From: Bacillales bacterium
Lineage (GTDB): Bacteria > Bacillota_I > Bacilli_A > RFN20 > CAG-449
Direction of reading: 5' to 3'
NCBI GenBank assembly: GCA_029006735.1
Contig: JAQXGN010000022.1
Coordinates: 9,640 to 73,639, forward strand
DNA length: 64,000 nucleotides
How positions within the stretch are numbered: the first letter of the stretch is position 1; each line of letters opens with the position of its first letter. The notes under the pieces are model-generated. The model searched no databases. It was not told the DNA's origin and worked only from the letters and a program-made list of their open reading frames with translations. Positions 14,401-28,084 of this stretch are shown piece after piece. Both the position numbers and the translations under genes were made by a program.

Positions 14401-15684
14401 ATCTAACGCTGCAGATAATTGATAATCACCAATCATAATTGATGCAACATCTTCTTCAGGAATGATAGTTGTATAAAAATAACATGGATTATCTTCGCCT
14501 GGATTTTGTGTTCCACCTTTATATCTTAAATTTCCATTATATTGATCATGTAAAATTTTTGCAGGTTCTCCATTAGATTTTTTAAATGAATAAGAAACTA
14601 AATCATTTGATCCATTATGAGAATCATCTTGCCAAATAAATTGAACACTTTTCCCATCAAAATCAATAACAGATGAATTAGTATTTGTTGAAGCTATTTG
14701 GCTTGCTAAAATCTTTGTGCCACTTTTTGTAGTAAATGCACCATCTTCAAAATAAATTTTATCACTATAATCAACATAACCGGAAACATATGTTGCAGAA
14801 CCTTCTGGAACAAATAATTCTGTACCAATTGAAGTATAATCAATTGTTTGAATTGTCTTTCCATCAAGGTTCATGGTAGAAATTTCATAATAAGCATGGT
14901 CAAAGGAAGAAACATAATAACTAATATTTTCTTTTGATTGTAAAACTAAAGTATCAAATTCTTCATTTTCAAATGTGGAATCAGAATAGAATTTAATTTC
15001 ATTAAATAGTTTTCCTTGTTCATTCATAACATTATATTTACGAATATAGTTTGTTGTACCTAAAATAGTAACTTTTTCTAGATTAGGCATTCCATTAAAC
15101 GCACCATCATAAACATAATTAATCGTTCTTGGAATAATGACATGACGAACAATACTTGTTGAATTAAAACCATTAGATCCTAAATCATCATAAGTATTAT
15201 AATATCCTCCTAAAATTTGAGTGACAGGAATTGTAAATAATTTTGATTCATTAAATTTAGATTGATTTTTAACATCTTCTAAATCGTAGTTATACCAACG
15301 ATAATCTGTTTTACCTTTTTCATCAACAAAAGTAATTTTTAATTCTGGATATTCAGGAATATAAGCAATCTCACTAAATCCTTCATATCGAGCAATCGCA
15401 AAGCCTTCAATAGAATCGACTAAATCATAAGGAATACTATCTAAAGCATAATATTCATAACCTTGTTGGTTAACAATATTTGGAATTGCAGCATAAAAAG
15501 TAAAATCATTTTCAGTTGGGTTAATTGGCTCAGTAACGATAGGTTGTTGTTCTTCATTCTCAGCCCAATATGCTAATGCTATATGAATTGTCTCAATTAA
15601 AGAAGCGGTTGCAAAAATCGCACTTAAACAACCGATAATTAATTTTTTCTGATTTTTAACAATGAAATCTTTTATCTTTCCCAT
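1..15684 (-). CDS. Giant secreted/cell-surface repeat protein, 5' part only. 5,228 codons are visible and the stop codon lies beyond the left edge of the window.
   Basis: ATG at 15684-15682 (minus) follows an AAAGGAAAA RBS. I hand-translated one frame (plus-strand triplets starting at positions equal to 1 mod 3). It gives coherent protein with no in-frame tta/cta/tca at 15684-15061 (MGKIKDFIVKNQKKLIIGCLSAIFATASLIETIHIALAYWAENEEQQP...), 11941-12000, 9181-9600, 8041-8100, 6781-6840, 5281-5400, 2881-3000, 781-960, 661-690 and 1-120. Any in-frame stop would have produced a closed ORF starting at 15684, and that ORF would appear in the supplied track. It does not, so the ORF must run off the edge. 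Confidence 0.85.
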   Translation of the reverse strand, partial: MGKIKDFIVKNQKKLIIGCLSAIFATASLIETIHIALAYWAENEEQQPIVTEPINPTENDFTFYAAIPNIVNQQGYEYYALDSIPYDLVDSIEGFAIARYEGFSEIAYIPEYPELKITFVDEKGKTDYRWYNYDLEDVKNQSKFNESKLFTIPVTQILGGYYNTYDDLGSNGFNSTSIVRHVIIPRTINYVYDGAFNGMPNLEKVTILGTTNYIRKYNVMNEQGKLFNEIKFYSDSTFENEEFDTLVLQSKENISYYVSSFDHAYYEISTMNLDGKTIQTIDYTSIGTELFVPEGSATYVSGYVDYSDKIYFEDGAFTTKSGTKILASQIASTNTNSSVIDFDGKSVQFIWQDDSHNGSNDLVSYSFKKSNGEPAKILHDQYNGNLRYKGGTQNPGEDNPCYFYTTIIPEEDVASIMIGDYQLSAALDANTKYTLRFVKGKDYWTLTTVKYTYKINYTASDGRIVEDMLSLNVKEDSFEEYSYDLGVYNYPTLKVYETKTIYGVNEDRLLTSFDVSYLNASYASENHKYQVKFSPCHIYNSIHYYNEMINDVDYLLEVKTQSRIGVERIYYLNEIISVNDDKIIVNFTIPEYWDGYEGDVYLKAYSLYDKTQEVLYYDGKSNPTTNNEAYQMTKVGSTYKYEFDLDYGAPMYISFYRLDDSGKIIEGEDVPWTLTGAQTTSNTFTLNGKEYNYSYESEALNNEAIKSTTSAAVYTVKSMDNHVIHGTTNQYIYLDLYKGTSEIPDGGGIGGAIIGSTKETDEGIYSTYMTNGGYYDNRYKEDLQYIKVIFYKTNAITNDNYEYVVNHNYKTGDDLYYIEVPEGYNYCRFLWYSYADEKPIGDTNDTNTNGLLPVVFGDVYQGHTRLRRSGLLMFAYTFFSKEEAYQNGLDPNYIYVNASYITKTNYDILYAEQKDENGNKVVSKFEEVKTYYYKATSDATTGTRVEFDNAQDLYTSEISQLYIDATLKYPINDYFIRIEKIPNLDSFKMYVVSNYSIFTEKEQLSIIGSYEFIRNNANSSFEEYYYDGEIGKYIKEYNATNGTSLNATYLISSFLNDGEAGEKGIYNSYGTTTADSSLGAFSLDKENTLLLFTPNENCEYSNVSYNVIDETGNVVSKLSFDRNATSKNGYQTFVGTVPLRGRDDSYFKVVSTGNNPQVIGYFILLSNGNYQFVASSESKALSSGSSSIIGGTTTDTKVDLTTSDDIYSTIVNQGSSTGIDRQYDYYLIGSFNNWKVSNSYGLVYNKTLTDNLGTGSNKKGSVYTITGIFLNKGDKFRISTGDAFINTIENVSLPTDDIIYVNDATNSDYRKYIVQTTGYYNINVSHTTTNINIGNLNLYSNFQYKVTFEVNNNDEVLNESISLYFKDENEWSLVNGNTINYALYHDDTFIASGTMLEKDQNNKALIVNGQTGWLSAKYIYRYASLLPNKVVFSCTSDEVGVKTTVPLSFTITEQVKATGCIFFTPKIVNKEVAKNSDNNAYLYNDGTEYLYTIRSNKNWSVNLAGLLYDVKNDRFFAEDVQLDVGQQVLIYDWQGKSYTLNQDYSWDYVANASQALIVGKNGSYLVTLQVTANGKIGRIVEYTLPYVDTTDTELNNSIVLVSKADGLVSATYSLQSTFNRTQFYADIILAQNYTIRVSYKGKTYSYTPVGLSEEEKTYRLYFSAIENMNLDEYHEVIKNWDDTRCNLSNKEFLEITFSPAAIFDGSYINIDYDSNNIKNIASTGNAYSISFKEQTNEFYAIVGDKKLSMLWVNDFGGGIESEYSVYTTTVTTIEANQEIRIVDKDGNSLLKKPFIICFPGTYVIYYCGSEIYYNHDTAADGSFSNCDAVRVQGETNYFLYIANKVVYDSLTNKYNNEYEEYKLDSTFIVPNTIKLENNPIKVTDANENVVSEIKQVTLYDYIEVPFESIVAENNYYYYNKDSKSYSPIKGGNCVSGKTYYRLVINNISSIEPGVYDLDYSIDNRRRQDDTYFVFTYVKLTRLPASSINLFYYQNQYYNEDETYFATNVYVQEKVTSDNFDSLKDKLVEFVKTDELISGKTYYVITGTDPNGNPILSEVMVNAFEKDVDYYVFNKITKDDTYDPTVKYYYYGFTQVDVDASNFNDGEYFYYQETTKDDVFSPDVTYYIKTGSGYVPTAVSIFNPNVTYYVMKQFDDRIDTIDPNITYYVIKKDENGDDVFIESKLTVNTGLFVIGDVGTLNYIEYGTQIDDTKEYYIYFNNNGTETYTKVDKFYIDPQSGYYKIEYVNQDAAGNRKAVTLTSLDGAKSYFKYVDGHYESVNVIALSDAYYFIDDNETIYTNETVRLDDKSILDVDYYSMDINQSLTYEENQYLKNDTYYYVPGTTNTIINKGAAEDRIVYSKQDNKYVEANPNLANGIYYTMDTNSPKLNTIGDISNKYDKGELLVTKNGDNYAGILDIGDVILDNELYFERKINEDDEGVETCPVKSHSYVNGFSDYYFKINVGQNVYDKDGNEVELHFYNNVDGETNGLNYQYGSRTEGFWPFRVYYYYTCLAIKNGDSYTKVNVHDTYDPNQTYYKAEFDENGNYHANKDVDGIVVDSVYVYRYVNNSQYIATFKVDNNGKIVEDAAYNNFPNGPLMIVDFNNSELHYGTSVWNKSEVTKYSTTFAKKDDLKKNTWYTNGRVTNSEKYTGDIKVRTSIGVNESITLYPTNQGENQLIYDQVINVYKNLNKTYNNDYITYSNLLSIIDNDNISNNRSTAQLSYKDGEAYKKYIDLVTNSDSLSGNDLYIAIYKLIKTSDYYSVKNIVNEQYDPLVDYLRKTDDNKAIVQVQSGESMYLDGTYYKSPTKVDNSTSLKYLIDNDFTTLLVKNNNEYIERNEVSLDKVYYVISNGRQSNYYLDRDNRTLYKKTSDTTFEVVLEDTFNGVYVTAEQYENMHQYDTTGNEKYFALTNNDGKNILTQVNNVKLDQKYYYDINARATIKDELYVDSYHYFTYDAENGVYTQVSKKDALDTSVEGRYYISEVTQGKVDFVVGEDEVYTIKHDEGSVVDGILVAPVYRPTTFEEGDFTTAIRNGGYYYFKKATVYNDATTYYQKNNYLSLAGNNGDGKITENQFRISLNGGGPNGLNIIYYVMDEDADLSRFDPALRDNYFVGYIYKDTYIKAEFPELKNDNYYDKVDGVPSSFNEDSIYFVLSSAALSEKVIDVSTLVHDGKGYIVQPYEFSGGTEGYEYYYYGSYNQFVEKDSVISLVLYQSLGNNAPTGKRFAYWSVDYQDSVSLSNGGGTTGAKHYSDGAIIDLKELDGPLVLYPVFEEAKYVVTFSTGVGYSIEMKQNGVWERAQATTISNSELEIRIKIEKGYTKSNIMITGVDDLIPTESDGYIHYTIPSTITDDVNVRVFVIANTYSAFLDLNPSGNFTSNKDYRLDTTVVDDIVYNQSYTFPIPVKVEANVGYIFVGWFDQNDTQITNYLGKTLKSWSFDYDVTLYAHWTNAFSVNIERTYIEITKEGETVELKKETLTLNESYGNSVSVTVDNIPGYECDEGSIKIYTEAGNVPYSKTEKMYSFTMPLNNVDFKVTYIRKLYKIEYDLSSGTLAEGLENPTEFTVDTETFTLNNPTKVGYSFVGWKSTDGTTAKTVIINKGSVGDRKYVAVFTPEVYTISMRVQPTGEVKIQEYTIETETFTLTAPTVKGYTFSLFTDTSNNSTYTEIVIEKGTIGNKSYRCDYIPVTYSYSCYALEEDDTTCAAGTYTVLSNDISIPAPERRGYAFLGWSLLITDEGCEDINEITGPNAKIIKGSTGNRRYIARWEVVSYNIKYNLNGGSYGEDVVVPAQYNIEISVVIPTPSLRGYTFKGWYVNGEYVAYTGEDYVISIGNAGDITLEANWEKTIYTITYQVDVNGHVGALPDGETSFGPDTYMIDTPTFTLNNPYVEGYTFLGWKEEGEDDSLYQNPMTITINSVGNHNFVAVYSPNEYVVTYDCNGGNSLSSSTVTYDQEYTLKVPTRVAYEFAGWYIYLGLDENENKIYVPLDSNGIWTMADDVTVVAMWVPTIYTIEIVYPSYIDTDGNVVEQRIQKGEYTIETDSMIINLAEEIIGYTFINWTLELQLEKDGEILTSNVDYIQIIKGDSYGNRRYLANYEAIEYSLTYDLNGGSVSNNPTQFTIETETFSLNNPTRVGYNFTGWKVYVDGKYLEPTSENFNSVIAKGSINNRLYIATWEPIVYTLTYDLAGGTLSGENPSSYTIETSTFSLNNPTRLGYKFLGWIEEVDGTSKPANDHMEIAQGSIGNRKYIASWEEIVYTVTYQAINVETGKACIGDIIKNGIRETFTVTNPITFNVSNAISVNGYSFSYWEIENTNGVYEDIVVKAYFTINTYNVSYKVVNQSGNILFGYTYNTTIRDTFTVENPIDFTTYTPSLDGYEFKSWSKENTSSVYNDLEVVGTMEVIVYRATLSYVNQNNSVLNGVEGLTTIDFSVENPIDFTKLNASKAGYSFNSNNSWLYNDSSITSTNGIYEDINVVGKLTVIEYHVTYKAVNSKGDTLSNATTSAPTIFTVENPIVFIDYTMNRDGYSFSGWDRVNTSATYEDIVVTASMTPITYKITYEYKSTSGIILTEVSNNAPTTYIVEDVIDFVNDDYIVTKQGYNFKSYSIQKLENEYGDKIVTVTLEPITYTITYKVLSSSGKDITTSANLSSLPTTYTAENKVYFSGRVISINGYEFGSWSISSTEGYFENLDVTINMNLLTYTITYKVLSSSGKDITLKVDLSSLPTEFTVENEVRFNEYYITSSGYAFSNWDKNNTTSTYKDIVVTASMTPITYKITYEYKSTSGISLTEVSNNAPTTYIVEDVIDYDNYQATKLGYNFKSYSIQRLENEYGNKIVTVTLEPITYTISFEYGEALGSTIVTKPYPSSITYTIESNSINLSNPSRDGYVFNGWKDDGYPISVIKAGSHRDYELKASWTAKQYTLEFNSGEGSNVSSFVVTFDQPYSLSQPTLRGYEFVGWYYNGELLDQNGNWTYDCGDNKKTVTLNAIWDIIHYKITYNLNGGENNPNNPSTFTVKDKITLADASKPGYDFVYWVIGELTRISVIDGTTMQDISDIVLNAVYKVHTYNITYKIVNYDWEERTGNNFKINNNTTYTVKNYFELIDGSAEGYEFIGWYLEINNEESEITSLSGYLEDLTIYGRFKVIEYDINYKYVKKGSVDTIYNASDVIVSNTNSTKYSIEKPVLNDEIIKDNITVKEGYIVNSIGSYDDENYFNSITYETYKGAS
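1151..2065. repeat. Near-identical intragenic direct DNA repeats (recent duplication of Flg_new modules)
   Basis: 1264-1408 versus 1921-2065: about 145 nt with 2 mismatches, offset 657 nt. 1532-1581 versus 1751-1800: 50 nt identical, offset 219 nt (73 codons). 1151-1230 versus 1801-1880 are also closely similar, offset 651 nt. Other modules of the array are far more diverged at the DNA level. Confidence 0.85.
6700..9720 (-). repeat. Tyr-Tyr (D-P-x-x-T-Y-Y) repeat region of the giant CDS, about 20 aa per unit
   Basis: Hand translation of 9600-9181 gives FVKTDELISGKTYYVITGTDPNGNPILSEVMVNAFEKDVDYYVFNKITKDDTYDPTVKYYYYGFTQVDVDASNFNDGEYFYYQETTKDDVFSPDVTYYIKTGSGYVPTAVSIFNPNVTYYVMKQFDDRIDTIDPNITYYV. 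The YY pairs fall exactly 60 nt apart over five units. The same motif recurs at 8041-8100 (TYDPNQTYYKAEFDENGNYH), and related text occurs at 6781-6840 (DSYHYFTYDAENGVYTQVSK). The outer boundaries are approximate. Confidence 0.65.
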
Positions 15685-15727
15685 AGCATTTTCCTTTCTT
15701 GCTTACAAAATATTTTTACCCAACCTT

Positions 15728-17011
15728 TTATTCTTGCGGAGTTTCTACCTCTTTTACCTCAATTTCGTAAGCGATATTAATATCTAAACGATTTGCTAAC
15801 CATAAATCACCATCTAATAATTCATCTGGTACTTTATAGTAAACTGCAGTAAGTACATAATATGTCTTATTGAATTCAAGTCCTTCTAATGATACTTGCA
15901 TTGAGAATTTATCTTCAGTAGAAGTATCAAATGGAACAATATTATAATAATTTGCATTTGTATTAATCCAAGTTTCTGATTGAGAATCTGGCACTAATCG
16001 ATATGATGTTGAACCTTTATTCTCTTTAAATCGATATAAACGATTTGTAACATGTTCATAATATGTATCCATATCAGCATTTATTGGATTATCTACTTTA
16101 ATAAGGGTATAGAAATCCTTACCAGTAGTATCTTGCGTTGTACATAATTCATATTGATCTGCGTCTTTGTTATAAAAGAAATAACTTGGATTTATGATAG
16201 AAATTGAAGATGGAGTTTGAATTTTTGATGCAACATAATACTCTTTATTTGCATTTACAACTTTATCTTCGGTTTTAACATATCGGCCTTTTTCTAATGG
16301 ATCATAGAACATTTCTGAGATTGTTTTCTTACTTGAAGCATCTTTATTAATAACTGTAGAAATTTCAGATAATGTTCCATCATTAATTTTGCTATCAAAT
16401 ACATAGAAAGAGAATGCAAGTGCATCTTTTTGTTTTAATGAATGTAACCCAGCATTAGATTTATCGTGATGTAAAATATCATAATAATCGACATCAATTT
16501 TAAATAATGCATTCTTTTCAGCATCATTAGAAGTTGAACCAAGTCTTAATGAGAATTGACGATAAATAACAGAACCTGGTTCTTCTAAATATTCACTTTT
16601 TGGCACTAATTTCTTAATACCTAAGTTCTCATCATTATTTAATACATAACTTTCAAATAGTGGTTCATTATTTGATGGATTAAGAACTTCTGTTGTCTTT
16701 GCTAATGTATTTTTATCAACTGGAATGTGGAACATTGATTGTTCATATTTACCATTTAAATATTCTTCTTTATTGAATGTGTTATTTATAACACCTTGTT
16801 TCATTTTCGCAGGAACTAATGTACCATCAACATCTTTATACGATGAGAATGAGAAAGCAATCGCACTACCTTCTGTTGTTGGAACATCAACTTTTAAGTT
16901 ACCGCCATTAGACATTTTATACCAAGCAAAAGAAGCTACTATTAAAGTAGTAACAAGCATCAATGATGATGTTATTAATGTTATTTGTCTTTTTAAGTTA
17001 TTAATAACCAT
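15728..17011 (-). CDS. Hypothetical secreted/membrane-anchored protein (427 aa), second gene of the giant-protein operon
   Basis: Complete ORF in the track, with an AAAGGAAAAG RBS. N-terminus is MVINNLKRQITLITSSLMLVTTLIVASFAWYKMSNGGNLKVDV (basic n-region, hydrophobic core, FAWY motif). It lies 26 nt downstream of the 840-aa gene and 43 nt upstream of the giant gene. No family recognised. Confidence 0.8.
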   Translation of the reverse strand: MVINNLKRQITLITSSLMLVTTLIVASFAWYKMSNGGNLKVDVPTTEGSAIAFSFSSYKDVDGTLVPAKMKQGVINNTFNKEEYLNGKYEQSMFHIPVDKNTLAKTTEVLNPSNNEPLFESYVLNNDENLGIKKLVPKSEYLEEPGSVIYRQFSLRLGSTSNDAEKNALFKIDVDYYDILHHDKSNAGLHSLKQKDALAFSFYVFDSKINDGTLSEISTVINKDASSKKTISEMFYDPLEKGRYVKTEDKVVNANKEYYVASKIQTPSSISIINPSYFFYNKDADQYELCTTQDTTGKDFYTLIKVDNPINADMDTYYEHVTNRLYRFKENKGSTSYRLVPDSQSETWINTNANYYNIVPFDTSTEDKFSMQVSLEGLEFNKTYYVLTAVYYKVPDELLDGDLWLANRLDINIAYEIEVKEVETPQE

Positions 17012-17037
17012 AAACTTCTTTTCCTTTCTTTTCCTAA

Positions 17038-19560
17038 TTACTTAACGTCTAAAATATTGATATTACCATGAATTTCTGCTTCAGAAGATTCTTCATTGAT
17101 TATTTCATAATAATAAAGCATAAATGCATATGATCTCTTCTCAAGATTTTCAATTCTTCCTAAAACTGTAGATTGTTTAAAATATGGCATCGTTACATTC
17201 GATCCAGATTCACTAGATTCATAAGAGATACCAAATGGATTCAATGATTCATAGCCGAAATACAACATATTATTTTTATTAGCAATATTGAATTGTTGTT
17301 TATCTAATTCAATATATCTTAATGCCCCATTAGAGCAAGTGAAATATACCTTTGCATTAGTGATTGTTTTAGATGAACTATAAGCACTATTTACTTCATA
17401 TGTTTTTACAAAATACGAATTATAAACAGTTGAACCTGGTTCGACATCTACTTTAGTAAATGATGCACCAGTTGCTGATCCATCTTGATAGTAATACTTA
17501 CCATCATGTCCAACATAATTACCTGTACCATTACCACCCAGTTCATAATATTCAACACCTTCCATTGCTGTATAGTGATTGCAAAGAACATAATATGGAG
17601 TAAGCGATACATCGTATGTATTTGCTTCATAATATTCACCTTGATTAAATACAGTTTCGGATACACCAGTTGCAGGAGTGAAAGTGTAATAAATCTTTGA
17701 AGCAAGATAATTATCATCATTAGTCAATTTGTATGTATTACCATCTTTTACATAGTAGAAACGTAAATCAACATCATTTCCTTTACCCATTCCAATCTCA
17801 TTAATTGTAAAGTATTTTGTTTTTAAATCGAATGATGTAGCTTTACTAATAACACCTGGCATTTGTGTTAATTTATATGCATCAGTAGCAGTCCAAGAGT
17901 TAGTAACACATTTTACCCACCATTCTGCAGGTTGAGTTTCTACATCGTTAATTTTGTGATATACAACAGTAACATTATTTGCATCAGATACTTTTCCTGT
18001 ATCAACACTCTTTGGAACAATTGCATAGATATAATAAGTTCCTGGAGCAATAGTAATTCGATTGCCTAAACCATTTTGATAGACATCCATATTTGTGGAA
18101 ATCAAATCGAAATTAAAGATTTCTGTTGAAGTAATTGGTGTAGACGTTCTATAAATTGTATAGTCATTCGAATTAAATGAAGCTAAATGATCGATATACC
18201 ATTTATTAACTACTGCAGAATATACTCCATTAACTGCGTTTGTATATGCTTCATTAATGTAAGAAACTGCATCACCTAATTCATTAGCATCAGTTAATGG
18301 AAGAAGTTTATCTTTACCCCATGAGTTCGTATCGCCTTCGTATGCAATTTGGATACTTGCATCTGTAGTAACAATAATTTCATAGTGATCACGGAATACT
18401 GTAACAACAATTGAGTATTGTCCAGCAGCAAGAGTCTTGTAGTATTCAACTTCCTTACCATTAATAATCGTAGTTCCTACGCTAGATGGATCGAAGTTAA
18501 CAAATCCTTTAATATATTCTTCAGTTAAAACATTGTAAATACGTAAGTATTCATCCATTTTAGCATTATAATCATATGTGTATTTTGTAATCCAATCAGA
18601 TGTATCGACACGAGAAGAGTTATTTGTAATAGTTGTTGGAGCCATTCTTGTATCTGGATTTTCATTTGATTCAAGAGTGATATATTTGTTATTTGTTGAA
18701 GAAACAAATTTTAAATCCAAAGTAAATTGACAACCAGTAAACATCGTATCAGAGAATACGAATCGGTTATTTGATCCATTATGGAATTTAATACCGATAT
18801 AATAAACTAACGAACCATTTTCAGTCGCAGGATCATCTTTATCAAGAATCATAATAGAAGAAGAAGCGAATTTATAGATTGTCTCATTGACGCTTTCTTT
18901 TTCTAACATAATAACTTTCCATTGGTTATATGATAAATCATTTGGTGAAGTAACATTGCCCTCTTCATCACAAATAGGATCTAAATCAATTTGTAATCTC
19001 TTTGCTTCTTCATATGTTGTCACTTCTTCATCGTTACTATCTAAGTAAGCAATTTTTTCATCAGCCAAGAAATCCAAATCAGAAATATTGTTAATTAAAT
19101 TTTGATCAAATCCATTTCCATTTTCATCTTTCTCCCAATAAATAGAAACGCCATTGACATATGCCATATCAATTGAGCCATATTTTTCTAAATCAGGAAC
19201 TTCAATTACAGCTTTGATAAAGATAATGTAAGGGACATCATAGACTGAATCTAAATCAGGTAATCCTGTTTGTCCACAATAGCCAGCAAATTCAGTAGAA
19301 GAGTCAACTGTATAGAAATCAGTGACATTGCCATCGTCGTCTTTAGTAAAGGAATTTGAATAACTATCACCAATAATATCAATAATAGCATCGTAACCTT
19401 CTCCACCTTCATTGATAGTTGCAGTGATTGAAGTAGAGCAACTTGAATCTTCACTTTCAAGAACGAAAGTATACCATGCTAAAGTTGTGGTAACTAAAAT
19501 AAGAGCCATCAAAAAAGTAATGACAGGTGTAAATATTTTCATAATTAATCTTTTGCTCAT
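17038..19560 (-). CDS. Hypothetical secreted/membrane-anchored protein (840 aa), first gene of the giant-protein operon
   Basis: Complete ORF in the track, with an AAGAGGT RBS. N-terminus is MSKRLIMKIFTPVITFLMALILVTTTLAWYTFVLESED. It is rich in N/Y/T/D and contains D/T-N-S-W modules (YEGDTNSWGKDKLL, CVTNSWTATDAYKL) and YY-rich stretches like the giant protein. No family recognised. Confidence 0.8.
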   Translation of the reverse strand: MSKRLIMKIFTPVITFLMALILVTTTLAWYTFVLESEDSSCSTSITATINEGGEGYDAIIDIIGDSYSNSFTKDDDGNVTDFYTVDSSTEFAGYCGQTGLPDLDSVYDVPYIIFIKAVIEVPDLEKYGSIDMAYVNGVSIYWEKDENGNGFDQNLINNISDLDFLADEKIAYLDSNDEEVTTYEEAKRLQIDLDPICDEEGNVTSPNDLSYNQWKVIMLEKESVNETIYKFASSSIMILDKDDPATENGSLVYYIGIKFHNGSNNRFVFSDTMFTGCQFTLDLKFVSSTNNKYITLESNENPDTRMAPTTITNNSSRVDTSDWITKYTYDYNAKMDEYLRIYNVLTEEYIKGFVNFDPSSVGTTIINGKEVEYYKTLAAGQYSIVVTVFRDHYEIIVTTDASIQIAYEGDTNSWGKDKLLPLTDANELGDAVSYINEAYTNAVNGVYSAVVNKWYIDHLASFNSNDYTIYRTSTPITSTEIFNFDLISTNMDVYQNGLGNRITIAPGTYYIYAIVPKSVDTGKVSDANNVTVVYHKINDVETQPAEWWVKCVTNSWTATDAYKLTQMPGVISKATSFDLKTKYFTINEIGMGKGNDVDLRFYYVKDGNTYKLTNDDNYLASKIYYTFTPATGVSETVFNQGEYYEANTYDVSLTPYYVLCNHYTAMEGVEYYELGGNGTGNYVGHDGKYYYQDGSATGASFTKVDVEPGSTVYNSYFVKTYEVNSAYSSSKTITNAKVYFTCSNGALRYIELDKQQFNIANKNNMLYFGYESLNPFGISYESSESGSNVTMPYFKQSTVLGRIENLEKRSYAFMLYYYEIINEESSEAEIHGNINILDVK

Positions 19561-19639
19561 TTTACTTTCTACCTCTTATTTCTCAATTCATTCCAAGAGA
19601 GCGTAATACGCCCAAACCCAAAACTCATTTTGCGCATTT

Positions 19640-19668
19640 ATAGTATCATAGAGGCCAAGTAATGTCTA
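19640..19668 (-). promoter_or_regulatory. Candidate sigma-A promoter of the three-gene giant-protein operon
   Basis: Minus strand reads TAGACA (19668-19663), then 17 nt, then TG-A-TACTAT (-10 at 19645-19640, with an extended -10 TG). It lies about 80 nt upstream of the 840-aa start codon. Such matches are common in AT-rich DNA. Confidence 0.35.
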
Positions 19669-19952
19669 TAATTTTTGAATAACTTTTTATTTTATAAAAG
19701 TATTTTAGAAAGTTTTGTAAATTTACTTTTTTAAAAAAAGAAAAAAATCACTTTATTCAAGCAAATTAAAAGATATATATTTATATATATCTTTTTTTAA
19801 TCTATTTAATTTTTTTAACTCACTTTTTTTACTTTTTTAAGTATCTAAAAGTTTTTTTTATTTTTTTTGTCTTTTTTGCTTCATTTTTTTTATTCTTTAA
19901 ATACATTTTTTATACTTTTGTAGATAATTAATTTTCACTTTTCTATCTTTTT

Positions 19953-21167
19953 TTATAAAATCATTTCATGAATTTTTTTCAAAAATATACTCCAAAAAGT
20001 ATTTTTTTCTAAGTCACTTGAAGTTAAAACATTATACTTTAATACTTCTCCAGAAGGTAATTTTATCATTAGCGTTCCAACTTTTGAATCCTTTTTTATC
20101 GGGTATTTTAATTGATCTAGTTCAAATTCAACTGTTATTTCATTTTCATTTTCTTCTTTCAATAAAGTAATTTCAATAGATTGATCTACATAGAAATCAC
20201 ATCTATTATTCTTGCAATTTTCAAGGTAATAATCCTTAATAATTACTTCATTTTTCCCATATAAATGAATTCTTTTTAGTTTTGAGAACGCATAATTTGT
20301 TAACTTAACAGTATCTTGATTTCTCTTTTCAATCGAATCTTCTTTCATCACAACATTAAGAATCCTTATCCCATTTCTTTTAACAGTACTTGTAAGGTTG
20401 TATTTTGCTAATCTAGTATATCCAGTCTTTAGACCATCTAAGCCATCTAAATCACCCAAAAGTTTATTTGTATTCACTAACCAAAATGGCTTATCTGTAT
20501 TCTCTCTAATATATGATTCTGTTAAGGAAGAATAGTTTAATATCTCTGGATAATCAATAATTAATCTTCTTCCAATAATAGCCATATCATATGGAGTCGT
20601 ATAGTGGGATGGATCATCAAATCCAGTCGCATTTACAAAATTAGTTCCATTCATTTTTAATAATTTTGCTTTATTATTCATTGCTTTTACAAACGCTTCG
20701 TTTGTTCCAAAACAATGTTCTCCTAAACAGACAATTGCATCATTACTCGAATTAATTGCGACAGCTTTAAATAAATCTTCTAAACGCATCTTTTCATTTG
20801 GTTCTAAATAAATCTGTGTCCCACCCATTTTACTAGCATAAGAAGAACAAATTACTTCATCATCCCAACTAATTTTACTATTATGAATTTCTTCTAATAT
20901 CAAATACATCCCCATCATTTTTGTCATTGATGCAGGAAAACATTTTTCGTGTTCATTCTTTGATGTAATTACTTTCCCTGATTCAATTTCTAGGGAAATA
21001 TAATAATTTCCATGTAATGATATTTGTTCATCAACATCATCAATTATCTGATTAGTATCAATCGCGTTTTCTCTTTCATTTATTAAAATACAATTAACAT
21101 TAGAATGATTAAATGAAGGTATAAACGTAAAAATTAAAGATATAAATATAAAAATAGCGTTTTTCAT
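19953..21167 (-). CDS. Serine-type D-alanyl-D-alanine carboxypeptidase (peptidase S11, PBP5-like)
   Basis: N-terminal signal sequence. Active-site motifs SMTK (SxxK), SSND (SxN) and KTGYT (KTG). The C-terminal extension is of PBP5 length. Confidence 0.9.
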   Translation of the reverse strand: MKNAIFIFISLIFTFIPSFNHSNVNCILINERENAIDTNQIIDDVDEQISLHGNYYISLEIESGKVITSKNEHEKCFPASMTKMMGMYLILEEIHNSKISWDDEVICSSYASKMGGTQIYLEPNEKMRLEDLFKAVAINSSNDAIVCLGEHCFGTNEAFVKAMNNKAKLLKMNGTNFVNATGFDDPSHYTTPYDMAIIGRRLIIDYPEILNYSSLTESYIRENTDKPFWLVNTNKLLGDLDGLDGLKTGYTRLAKYNLTSTVKRNGIRILNVVMKEDSIEKRNQDTVKLTNYAFSKLKRIHLYGKNEVIIKDYYLENCKNNRCDFYVDQSIEITLLKEENENEITVEFELDQLKYPIKKDSKVGTLMIKLPSGEVLKYNVLTSSDLEKNTFWSIFLKKIHEMIL

Positions 21168-26331: not shown

Positions 26332-27194
26332 TGATAACGATCCTTTCTGAATATTAATTCTTTACTTAACGCTACGTAATTATCGTAGTTTTCCTTTACA
26401 AGCTTATTTTGTATTAATGCTTCTTTTACTTTACATCCACTCTCTGTTATATGTAAACAATTATTGAACTTACATTCACCCAAAGAAGAAAATCCTGGAA
26501 AATAAGTTGCAAGTTCTTCTTTAAATAAAGGTAATTCTAAACTAGAAAATCCAGGTGTATCCGCGATAAGCCCATTTTCATAAGGGAGAATAATAACTTC
26601 TTTAGTTTGGTGTTTTCCTCTTCCTTGACCAATAGAATACTCTCCAATCGCGCGAACAAAATCAGGATCAATTTGATTAATTAAACTTGATTTCCCCACA
26701 CCTGTTTGTCCCATAAAAGCAATAACTTTTCCTTTAATAGTCTCTTTAATATCTTCTAAACCTTCTAGTGTTCTTTTTGAATATACAATTGTTTTAATTC
26801 CAATCTTTTCATAATTATTTTTTATAGTAAGTTCTAAGCCACGTTCTTCAAGTAAATCTACCTTAGTAAGTACGATTAATGGTGTAACATTACTCATATT
26901 TAATAATGTTAAAAACTTATCTAATAAATAACTAGAAAAATCAGGGTTTTTTAAAGAAATCACGATAATTCCATAATCTAGATTAGCAATTCTAGGACGG
27001 ATTAATGAATTATTTCTTTCCTTAATTTCATTAATCTGTTTATCTTCAATAGAAATAGAAACAAAATCTCCTACAAGTAAGTTTTTTTTGTGGTGTCTAA
27101 AAATACCTCTTGGCGTACAATCAAATATACGTCCATCTTCCAATAGGACTTTATATACTCCTCCAACAGTTGATATTATTCTTCCATCTATCAT
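26328..27194 (-). CDS. rsgA: Ribosome small-subunit-dependent GTPase A
   Basis: Circularly permuted GTPase with GQTGVGKSSLIN and a C-terminal zinc motif CKFNNCLHITESGC. Confidence 0.93.
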   Translation of the reverse strand: MIDGRIISTVGGVYKVLLEDGRIFDCTPRGIFRHHKKNLLVGDFVSISIEDKQINEIKERNNSLIRPRIANLDYGIIVISLKNPDFSSYLLDKFLTLLNMSNVTPLIVLTKVDLLEERGLELTIKNNYEKIGIKTIVYSKRTLEGLEDIKETIKGKVIAFMGQTGVGKSSLINQIDPDFVRAIGEYSIGQGRGKHQTKEVIILPYENGLIADTPGFSSLELPLFKEELATYFPGFSSLGECKFNNCLHITESGCKVKEALIQNKLVKENYDNYVALSKELIFRKDRYQ

Positions 27195-28084
27195 TATTTA
27201 CCCTCTTTTGGAATGCGATGAAATAATCGATCAAAGAATGATCTTTTTTTAATAAGTTCAGGATTACGTAAAATACGATCAATATCCTTTCTCATTTCAA
27301 AGCATGATTTATAACGATTATTTGGGTTCTTATCAGTTGCTTTATTAATAATCTTTTCAACAACTAATGGTACTTTAGGATTGATTTTTCTAACTGATGG
27401 CATCTTATTATTAATATGCATTAACGCAACAGTAACTGGAGATTCATCATCAAAAGGAACTTTTCCAGTTAATAACTCATAGAATGAAATTCCTAATGCA
27501 TAAATATCTGATTGAACTGTCGCAGGATTACCTTGAGATAATTCTGGAGCTAAATAATGAACTGAACCAACAACCACTTCACTTCTAGTAACTCTACTTG
27601 CATTTGTGAAAGTTGCAATACCAAAATCGCCAAGTTTTACCGTAGAATCTGGAGTTATATAAACATTTTTTGGCTTGATATCACGATGAATAACATTATG
27701 TTGATGAGCATTTAATACAGCAGAACATAATTGATACATAATATCACAAGATTCTAATACGGAAAACTTACCACGAACATTTAATACATCTCTTAATGTT
27801 TGTCCTCTGATTAGTTCAGTAACCATATATGGACGTCCTTCTGATGTACCAACATTAATGACACGAACAATGTTTTGGTGATTCAAAGAAGCTGCTGCAC
27901 GTGCTTCACGTTCAAAACGAGTAAGATTAATGGGATTCTTCATTGTATCTTCCTTAATAATCTTAACTGCAACATCTTTTTTGGATATTAAATCTTCTGC
28001 TTGATAAACAGTAGCCATTCCACCTTCACCAAGAACTGACTTAATACGATATCTTTCATCAATAATCTCACCAAGTTTCATCAA
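27194..28084 (-). CDS. prkC: Hanks-type Ser/Thr protein kinase, kinase domain only (no TM or PASTA region)
   Basis: GEGGMATVY...AVK, HRDIKPKN, DFG and APE motifs. The protein ends at 296 aa, directly after the kinase domain. It sits in the conserved prpC-prkC-rsgA position. Confidence 0.9.
   Translation of the reverse strand: MMKLGEIIDERYRIKSVLGEGGMATVYQAEDLISKKDVAVKIIKEDTMKNPINLTRFEREARAAASLNHQNIVRVINVGTSEGRPYMVTELIRGQTLRDVLNVRGKFSVLESCDIMYQLCSAVLNAHQHNVIHRDIKPKNVYITPDSTVKLGDFGIATFTNASRVTRSEVVVGSVHYLAPELSQGNPATVQSDIYALGISFYELLTGKVPFDDESPVTVALMHINNKMPSVRKINPKVPLVVEKIINKATDKNPNNRYKSCFEMRKDIDRILRNPELIKKRSFFDRLFHRIPKEGK

Follow-up and report, generated by a model that had tools for sequence, protein, structure and literature searches.

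In a 64,000-nucleotide (nt) stretch of contig JAQXGN010000022.1, hereafter the window, three consecutive genes designated A, B and C encode two smaller proteins and one giant adhesin-like protein, whose N-termini share a short motif at the end of a hydrophobic stretch. We lean towards the explanation that A, B and C carry a lineage-specific, SipW-cognate signal which is probably cut by a dedicated peptidase of the endoplasmic reticulum (ER) type. The window belongs to a low-GC Firmicute (28% guanine plus cytosine). The letters of the three N-termini are exactly those quoted in a preliminary description of this DNA, which had likened them to the ending of SipW-dependent signal peptides, and the gaps of 26 nt between A and B and of 43 nt between B and C, as well as the purine-rich ribosome-binding site in each gap, also agree with that description. 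The genes and their motifs are located as follows:

17038-19560, minus strand: gene A, an open reading frame (ORF) of 840 amino acids (aa)
15728-17011, minus strand: gene B, an ORF of 427 aa
1-15684, minus strand: gene C, starting at 15684 with its frame open at base 1, at least 5228 aa
19471-19485, minus strand: TLAWY of A (T26-L27-A28-W29-Y30), predicted cut after A28
16919-16933, minus strand: SFAWY of B (S27-F28-A29-W30-Y31), predicted cut after A29
15565-15579, minus strand: ALAYW of C (A36-L37-A38-Y39-W40), predicted cut after A38

Each of the three N-termini is composed of a basic stretch, some 21-26 hydrophobic residues, a small-x-small triplet and two aromatic residues. The motif was surveyed in 41 N-termini representing five families, i.e., A, B, C and two more from relatives. 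Numbered from the predicted cut, position -3 is S, T or A and position -1 is A, S or G in all 41 N-termini, while position -2 is F in 33 of the 41, the remainder having Y, L or S; position +1 is W, Y, I or L, and position +2 is Y, W or F, again in 41 of 41. In these N-termini the motif lies flush with the end of the hydrophobic stretch, without a polar c-region. The rule for type I signal peptidases is that -3 and -1 are small while -2 is bulky, and an aromatic belt at a membrane interface would not require this. Within each family, conservation among orthologues is also highest in the motif: nine members of the A family all have W29 and Y30 (with S or T at -3 and A, S or G at -1); F28, A29 and W30 do not vary among 14 B-family sequences, which share 25-45% identity, with a mean column identity of 30%; and twelve N-termini of the C family follow the pattern [STA]-[FYL]-[AS] and then [YIL]-W. 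A profile comparison between the A and B families yielded an alignment confined to the first 37 residues, which comprise the hydrophobic segment and the motif (E 2.8e-5), and the tag is therefore common to the two families while the mature fold is not.

The loci with which the window was compared all come from related genomes. Contigs that encode relatives of B (L004 and L082 to L096) always carry an A-like gene, B and a C-like gene in this order and on one strand, and the same gene order in about ten contigs other than the window supports the earlier suggestion that the three genes form one system.

A resemblance among the N-termini could also arise by coincidence from aromatic residues that flank membrane helices, in which case A, B and C would be functionally unrelated neighbours. 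Aromatics are common at membrane interfaces, and the three proteins are devoid of significant similarity past the N-terminus, none having been found in pairwise BLAST comparisons among them. However, a background set was assembled of 300 ORFs from unrelated low-GC loci that encode a hydrophobic segment at the N-terminus; even the loose motif occurs in only three of them, and in none does it directly adjoin the end of the segment. Furthermore, trio and motif are kept together in those ten or so contigs, and the 26- and 43-nt gaps were searched for terminator-like sites with none being found. The conservation data thus refute coincidence, which we regard as extremely improbable, and the shared motif is more than chance.

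A gene for a SipW-type (archaeal/ER-type) signal peptidase adjoins the A-B-C trio, or is located within 4 kb upstream of it, in four lineages:

L086: SipW-type gene of 227 aa, 191 base pairs (bp) upstream of A
L091: SipW-type orthologue of 217 aa, immediately upstream of A-B-C
L004: SipW-type gene, designated SipW2, 3.9 kb upstream, with pdp, an Rpn-type gene and dacA in between
L093: SipW-type orthologue of 302 aa, 3.3 kb upstream, in a locus of the long-A subgroup (see below)

The SipW2 protein of L004 scores 55.9 bits with the NCBIfam model TIGR02228, above its cut-off of 51.85, and, when compared with B. subtilis SipW, exhibits 35% identity, with the GSM, THRIV and KGD motifs (Ser/His/Asp) kept. 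In L004 and L091 the cluster has the order p344, small protein, SipW1, AAA+, DUF2357, SipW2 and A-B-C. Its first sub-cluster (2893-6004 in L004, 1617-4949 in L091) encodes p344 or p387, whose N-terminus ends in ...TS[AG]↓YY (the arrow marking the predicted cut), a small protein of 199-247 aa with the ending ...GTYA↓WY in both loci, and SipW1, a SipW-like but divergent peptidase that has 311-361 aa and contains a large insertion. Thus, five motif proteins are encoded beside two SipW-type peptidases in L004 and L091. Searches of PDB sequences with the small protein and with p344 returned nothing meaningful. The second sub-cluster, consisting of AAA+, DUF2357 and SipW2, is always contiguous (6052-9970 in L004, 4989-8964 in L091 and 1-4441 in L093), its genes being separated by gaps of 11 and 37 nt or sharing a 14-nt overlap. 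The AAA+ protein is McrB-like with three N-terminal membrane helices, and its core has a PADLOC match to PDC-M26A, a candidate defence protein (about 1e-36), whereas no PADLOC defence model was returned for SipW2 or DUF2357.

The N-termini were further compared with models of known SipW-dependent signals, in particular TIGR04088, the model of SipW-dependent-type signal peptides (cut-off 19 bits) from the NCBIfam set of 18,950 models, for which TasA, as a positive control, scored 38 bits. The N-termini of the C proteins of relatives matched TIGR04090 (BsaA family) with 14.6 bits (L091) and 12.2 bits (L092), below its cut-off of 60. For the small GTYAWY proteins of L004 and L091, the best Pfam family was camelysin/TasA (PF12389; 15 bits, E 0.02), the match being in register, restricted to the signal region and below the threshold of 22.5 bits, at which A and B of the window have no PF12389 match. 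The same few SipW-signal models appear to be picked repeatedly out of 18,950 as weak top matches; these matches are not independent, since the queries are homologous to one another. Curated models capture neither this signal variant nor the A and B families.

A number of results weigh against cleavage by a SipW-type peptidase. Queries from the window, consisting of A, B and C at full length or as the first 1000 aa together with their short N-termini, gave zero matches to TIGR04088 at E<=10, and the short N-termini of relatives reached 14.7 bits (C of L091), 9.7, 9.1 and 8.8 bits, all of which are below 19. In line with the preliminary description, the window yielded no signal peptidase gene, either by tblastn with SipW sequences or in NCBIfam scans of its small ORFs; the peptidase search covered a flank of 44 kb upstream of A, and when SipW1, SipW2, AAA+, DUF2357, p344 and the small protein served as tblastn queries against the 64-kb window, nothing was detected. 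The trio of L088 and that of L092 are likewise without sipW in the short flanks covered. Because it is always contiguous with AAA+ and DUF2357, SipW2 may belong to their module, and because the loci come from related genomes, the sipW linkage may partly be inherited synteny. Two structural results point in the same direction. The AlphaFold2 model of B contains a single helix at residues 2-31 that runs unbroken through the motif, as expected of a membrane anchor, and a Foldseek search of this model against the PDB yielded nothing at E<0.1, with jelly-roll and lectin folds at noise level. SipW dependence of the signal is consequently supported only in part: the small-x-small/aromatic ending and the linked sipW of relatives speak for it, while the result with TIGR04088 and the gene content of the window do not.

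Some of these results would equally suit ordinary Sec signals cut by a housekeeping peptidase of the LepB type, the aromatic pair then serving the folding or docking of the mature protein and not recognition. Any type I signal peptidase would accept a small-x-small triplet, the trio of the window and those of L088 and L092 have no sipW nearby, and the scores for the curated SipW-signal model remain below its cut-off. Nevertheless, the polar c-region is absent and the cut would fall right at the end of the hydrophobic stretch, as it does in TasA-type signals, two SipW paralogues share the cluster with five motif proteins, and ordinary signal peptides do not hold invariant residues across 25% identity, so that processing by LepB is considered improbable.

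A second explanation, which is rather unlikely in our estimation but not as improbable as LepB processing, regards the segments as uncleaved signal anchors. A, B and C would then be type II membrane proteins in which the juxtamembrane [S/T]-F-A-W-[Y/F] packs helices against each other, A and B would form a platform that holds the adhesin on the cell without sortase anchoring, and the nearby SipW would have other substrates or work for the AAA+/DUF2357 module. Hydrophobic stretches of 21-26 residues suffice to span a membrane, the modelled helix of B passes through the motif, the window is without sipW, and TIGR04088 is not matched. Moreover, cleavage would free the adhesin-like C, since its complete orthologues (L004, L091 and L092) have neither an LPXTG motif nor a C-terminal hydrophobic tail, a result that pertains to the complete orthologues as the C-terminus of C itself is located beyond the window. 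On the other hand, packing leaves unexplained why small residues occupy -3 and -1 in all 41 N-termini of five otherwise unrelated families; TasA, whose hydrophobic stretch is equally long, is cleaved; in four lineages the cluster includes SipW genes; and the weak top matches are repeatedly to SipW-signal models.

With the SipW-cognate signal as the preferred explanation, A, B and C would be exported by the Sec pathway by means of a signal with a basic n-region, some 21-26 hydrophobic residues and the sequence [S/T]-[F/Y/L]-[A/S/G]↓[W/Y]-[Y/W/F], and an archaeal/ER-type signal peptidase, i.e., a SipW paralogue, would cut after the small residue at -1. The peptidase gene of this genome would be located outside the 64-kb window, while it adjoins the trio in relatives. 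The mature proteins would begin with two aromatics followed by a short beta-prone stretch, and A and B would act as partners of the giant LRR/Flg_new adhesin (LRR, leucine-rich repeat), co-transcribed with it and forming or seeding an extracellular assembly that carries or retains C, by analogy with TapA/TasA or with BsaA, BsaB and BsaC. The complete C orthologues, which have neither LPXTG nor a C-terminal hydrophobic anchor, count in favour of this explanation as well. In this scheme we infer the cleavage at the motif, the peptidase responsible and the assembly through a fibre or donor strand from the signal, the gene neighbourhood and these analogies.

The analogy with the B. subtilis tapA-sipW-tasA operon has several components. 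In both systems an archaeal/ER-type peptidase is encoded with its putative substrates (in the present case in relatives), and a minor or accessory partner accompanies a main product. The cut site of TasA (TWA↓AF) resembles that of B (SFA↓WY) in having a small-aromatic-small triplet and then an aromatic pair, preceded by some 21 hydrophobic residues, and in both proteins a beta-prone stretch lies past the cut (...ASGTLDLS in TasA, ...NGGNLKVDV in B). Mature TasA starts at residue 28, and its first 11 mature residues constitute the donor strand of the fibre (PMC9674648). In contrast to TIGR04088-type signals, the N-termini described here lack a GGG ahead of the motif as well as an [ST]-D behind it. 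The systems further differ in that the mature sequences of A and B, and the predicted fold of B, are unrelated to the TasA jelly-roll, in that the main product is a giant LRR/Flg_new adhesin and not a 26-kDa fibre subunit, and in that the window is without sipW.

A parallel in gene content is provided by the C. perfringens operon sipW-bsaA-bsaB-bsaC, which encodes a peptidase, two smaller secreted proteins and a larger adhesive protein, BsaA, BsaB and BsaC all being taken as SipW substrates (PMC11580942). The loci L086 and L091 have exactly the corresponding order sipW-A-B-C. Dissimilarities include the absence of a vWA domain from the present system, the absence of signs of isopeptide-linked polymers (for which no search was made), the presence in relatives of two SipW paralogues with an inserted membrane AAA+/DUF2357 pair, and the size of C, which, unlike BsaC (70 kDa), is 20 to 90 times larger than suggested at the scale of the small partners. 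C also resembles the giant Flg_new/BspA-type LRR surface proteins of gut Firmicutes in possessing a Flg_new array and a weak N-terminal LRR. Such proteins usually have an ordinary signal peptide together with LPXTG or wall-binding modules, whereas C has the SipW-like tag, its complete orthologues are without LPXTG, and A and B always precede it. Archaeal bundling pili and TasA-like fibres (AbpA, AbpX) consist of secreted beta-sandwich subunits that exchange N-terminal strands; the assembly proposed above borrows this idea, and the link between these donor-strand fibres and A, B and C is purely conceptual. No description of the present cluster was found in the literature that was searched.

A more far-reaching proposal, to which we attach a low probability, is that the cluster encodes a sortase-independent surface-assembly machine that has so far gone unrecognised. 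Two ER-type peptidases would unmask aromatic donor-strand N-termini, A and B would build a non-TasA stalk or base displaying an adhesin of more than 5000 residues, and AAA+/DUF2357 would aid export or assembly rather than phage defence.

SipW-type peptidases are known from few biofilm-matrix systems (TasA/TapA and BsaA-C), in which their substrates are small fibre subunits. In the present case, the SipW logic appears to be tied to two new families together with giant adhesins, 1300 to more than 6000 residues long, of uncultured low-GC Erysipelotrichales-like bacteria, with related gut bacteria carrying the peptidase beside the trio. Were the processing to occur as proposed, the substrate range of SipW would be broadened, [ST]-F-[AS]↓[WY]-[YWF] would become a signature for annotation, and wall-poor or sortase-poor Firmicutes would have a route by which to display very large adhesins. 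Were the segments to stay in the membrane as anchors, a new membrane complex of three proteins would be recognisable by the invariant motif.

The giant protein C is organised, from its N-terminus, as a hydrophobic segment, a conserved domain (FNATEEEFTFYA...GYDYY...), a weak LRR region, a beta-rich middle and a Flg_new array. The LRR region, at residues 165-254, is a weak BspA-type match (LRR_5, 19.2 bits, below the cut-off), and the long, beta-rich middle contains short YY-type repeats. The last 1700 visible residues consist of Listeria-Bacteroides repeats, matched by Pfam Flg_new (PF09479) in 13 stretches with 212.9 bits, above the gathering score; Flg_new, Flg_new_2 and the weak LRR_5 are the only Pfam matches of C. 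A word-indexed search with its first 1000 residues found no relatives, and orthologues of its N-terminus are present in L004, L082-L089 and L091-L093, the orthologues ranging in length from 1339 aa to more than 6298 aa. L089 and L090 have an identical B and an A of the same size, while C is called with 381 aa in L090 as opposed to at least 576 aa in L089; a short gene on the opposite strand follows in L090, where the short C may reflect either faulty assembly or a truncated allele.

Repeats of the type ..D-P-x-V-T-Y-Y-V.. recur every 20-25 residues or so in the middle of C (6085-9987, residues about 1900-3200), and are also present in the C-terminal extension of A (17461-17778, residues about 595-700) and in an insertion of B (15947-16300, residues 238-355). 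In the short-repeat region B and C align by BLAST with an E of 0.025, and no Pfam family matches these repeats. Such repeats, shared by A, B and C, might bind the wall or glycans. In addition, (Y/F)IKGxxNxW and LIGSFNNW motifs in the extension of A (17038-18700) and in the giant protein resemble carbohydrate-binding modules (CBMs), and Pfam CBM26 was found as a weak match in the giant protein of L093 (11183 onward) and a faint one in a 1062-aa neighbour in L091 (16835-20023). From their sequence, the CBM-like motifs hint at binding of starch or glycogen.

Three parts can be told apart in protein A: the hydrophobic segment at its N-terminus, a conserved domain of some 220 aa, and an extension of roughly 550 aa at the C-terminus. 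Family alignments of the conserved domain reveal invariant P12, W29, Y30 and GYxGQT. The extension is limited to one of two subgroups, i.e., that of the long A proteins (737-840 aa), to which the A protein of the window belongs, the other subgroup being represented by short A proteins of 221-261 aa. That A and B belong to no nameable family, as previously noted, was corroborated by zero Pfam families (E<=1) and zero NCBIfam matches. In a word-indexed search of 5.8 billion protein clusters the sole match of A was a 99% identical protein, and the A profile returned nothing meaningful among PDB sequences. The comparison of the A family with TasA by hhalign was insignificant (probability <=1.3%); in this insignificant alignment the last strands of A (Y.GS.F.L.IKF) line up with the TasA segment KYQGNSIKLQFSF.

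The same word-indexed search returned, for B, solely a 99% identical copy, whereas an exhaustive HMMER search of 1.84 billion cluster representatives identified 19 relatives, 13 of these with E below 1e-10 and most being 290-390 aa in length with 29-45% identity to B. A scan of a genome collection with B gave zero matches, and a metagenome scan with the B profile found one locus, L088. A and B are accordingly new and rare families. A 99% identical copy is present in sequencing run SRR17418317. A single weak match of one short B N-terminus to TIGR04313 (the Mycoplasma 'aromatic motif membrane protein') was judged a fluke, because an NCBIfam scan of 14 full-length members of the B family showed no recurring family.

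The above-mentioned AlphaFold2 model of B, obtained with the 14-sequence alignment, has a predicted local distance difference test score (pLDDT) of 62.6 and a predicted template modelling score (pTM) of 0.60, while a model from the single sequence was unusable (pLDDT 37). Residues 30-47, directly past the motif, are modelled with low confidence, which would be compatible with a strand that becomes ordered only in an assembly. A beta-rich core is formed by residues 50-237 and 356-420, and the intervening residues 238-355, an insertion specific to the window, are again of low confidence. The preliminary description had looked towards the TasA jelly-roll as a fold for B. TasA (5OF1, 5OF2) is not among the 50 Foldseek matches listed for the model, the hhalign comparison of the B family with TasA gave a probability of <=1.3%, and the B profile found nothing meaningful among PDB sequences; with no structural, PDB-profile or TasA-profile match, the jelly-roll reading of B is unsupported.

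Upstream of A is a very AT-rich intergenic region of 392 bp (19561-19952), which is followed by a conserved neighbour:

19640-19668, minus strand: promoter-like site (TAGACA, 17 nt, TACTAT, extended TG) upstream of A, a weak candidate
19953-21167, minus strand: gene for a D-Ala-D-Ala carboxypeptidase (DacA-like; NCBIfam match), conserved upstream neighbour of A

The promoter candidate that had been proposed upstream of A does match the consensus, but regional enrichment is absent, 26 matches having been found as compared to 33.6 expected from shuffled sequence. Rfam detected zero RNA families over the whole window, and thus no riboswitch upstream of A, and a transfer RNA scan of the window found none. 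The dacA gene is a synteny marker and is outside the A-B-C system. L004 repeats the order of dacA and then A-B-C, while in the 11405-17858 region of the closest genome (L002, 74% identity in pdp) the genes after dacA encode a small membrane protein and an ABC transporter, and A-B-C is missing from this position, the trio therefore being variably present among relatives. The closest genomes, as judged by the pdp protein (73-74% identity), are metagenome-assembled genomes of uncultured 'Bacilli' and 'Erysipelotrichaceae'.

The neighbouring housekeeping genes are dacA, cobB, pdp, rsmF, rpe, rsgA, those for a Ser/Thr kinase and a phosphatase, and rlmN. The kinase (27194-28084), which is of the Stk1/PknB type and has just 296 aa, is without an extracellular PASTA part, because its match covers the kinase part alone of the PknB_PASTA_kin model, and its gene adjoins that of its PP2C phosphatase.

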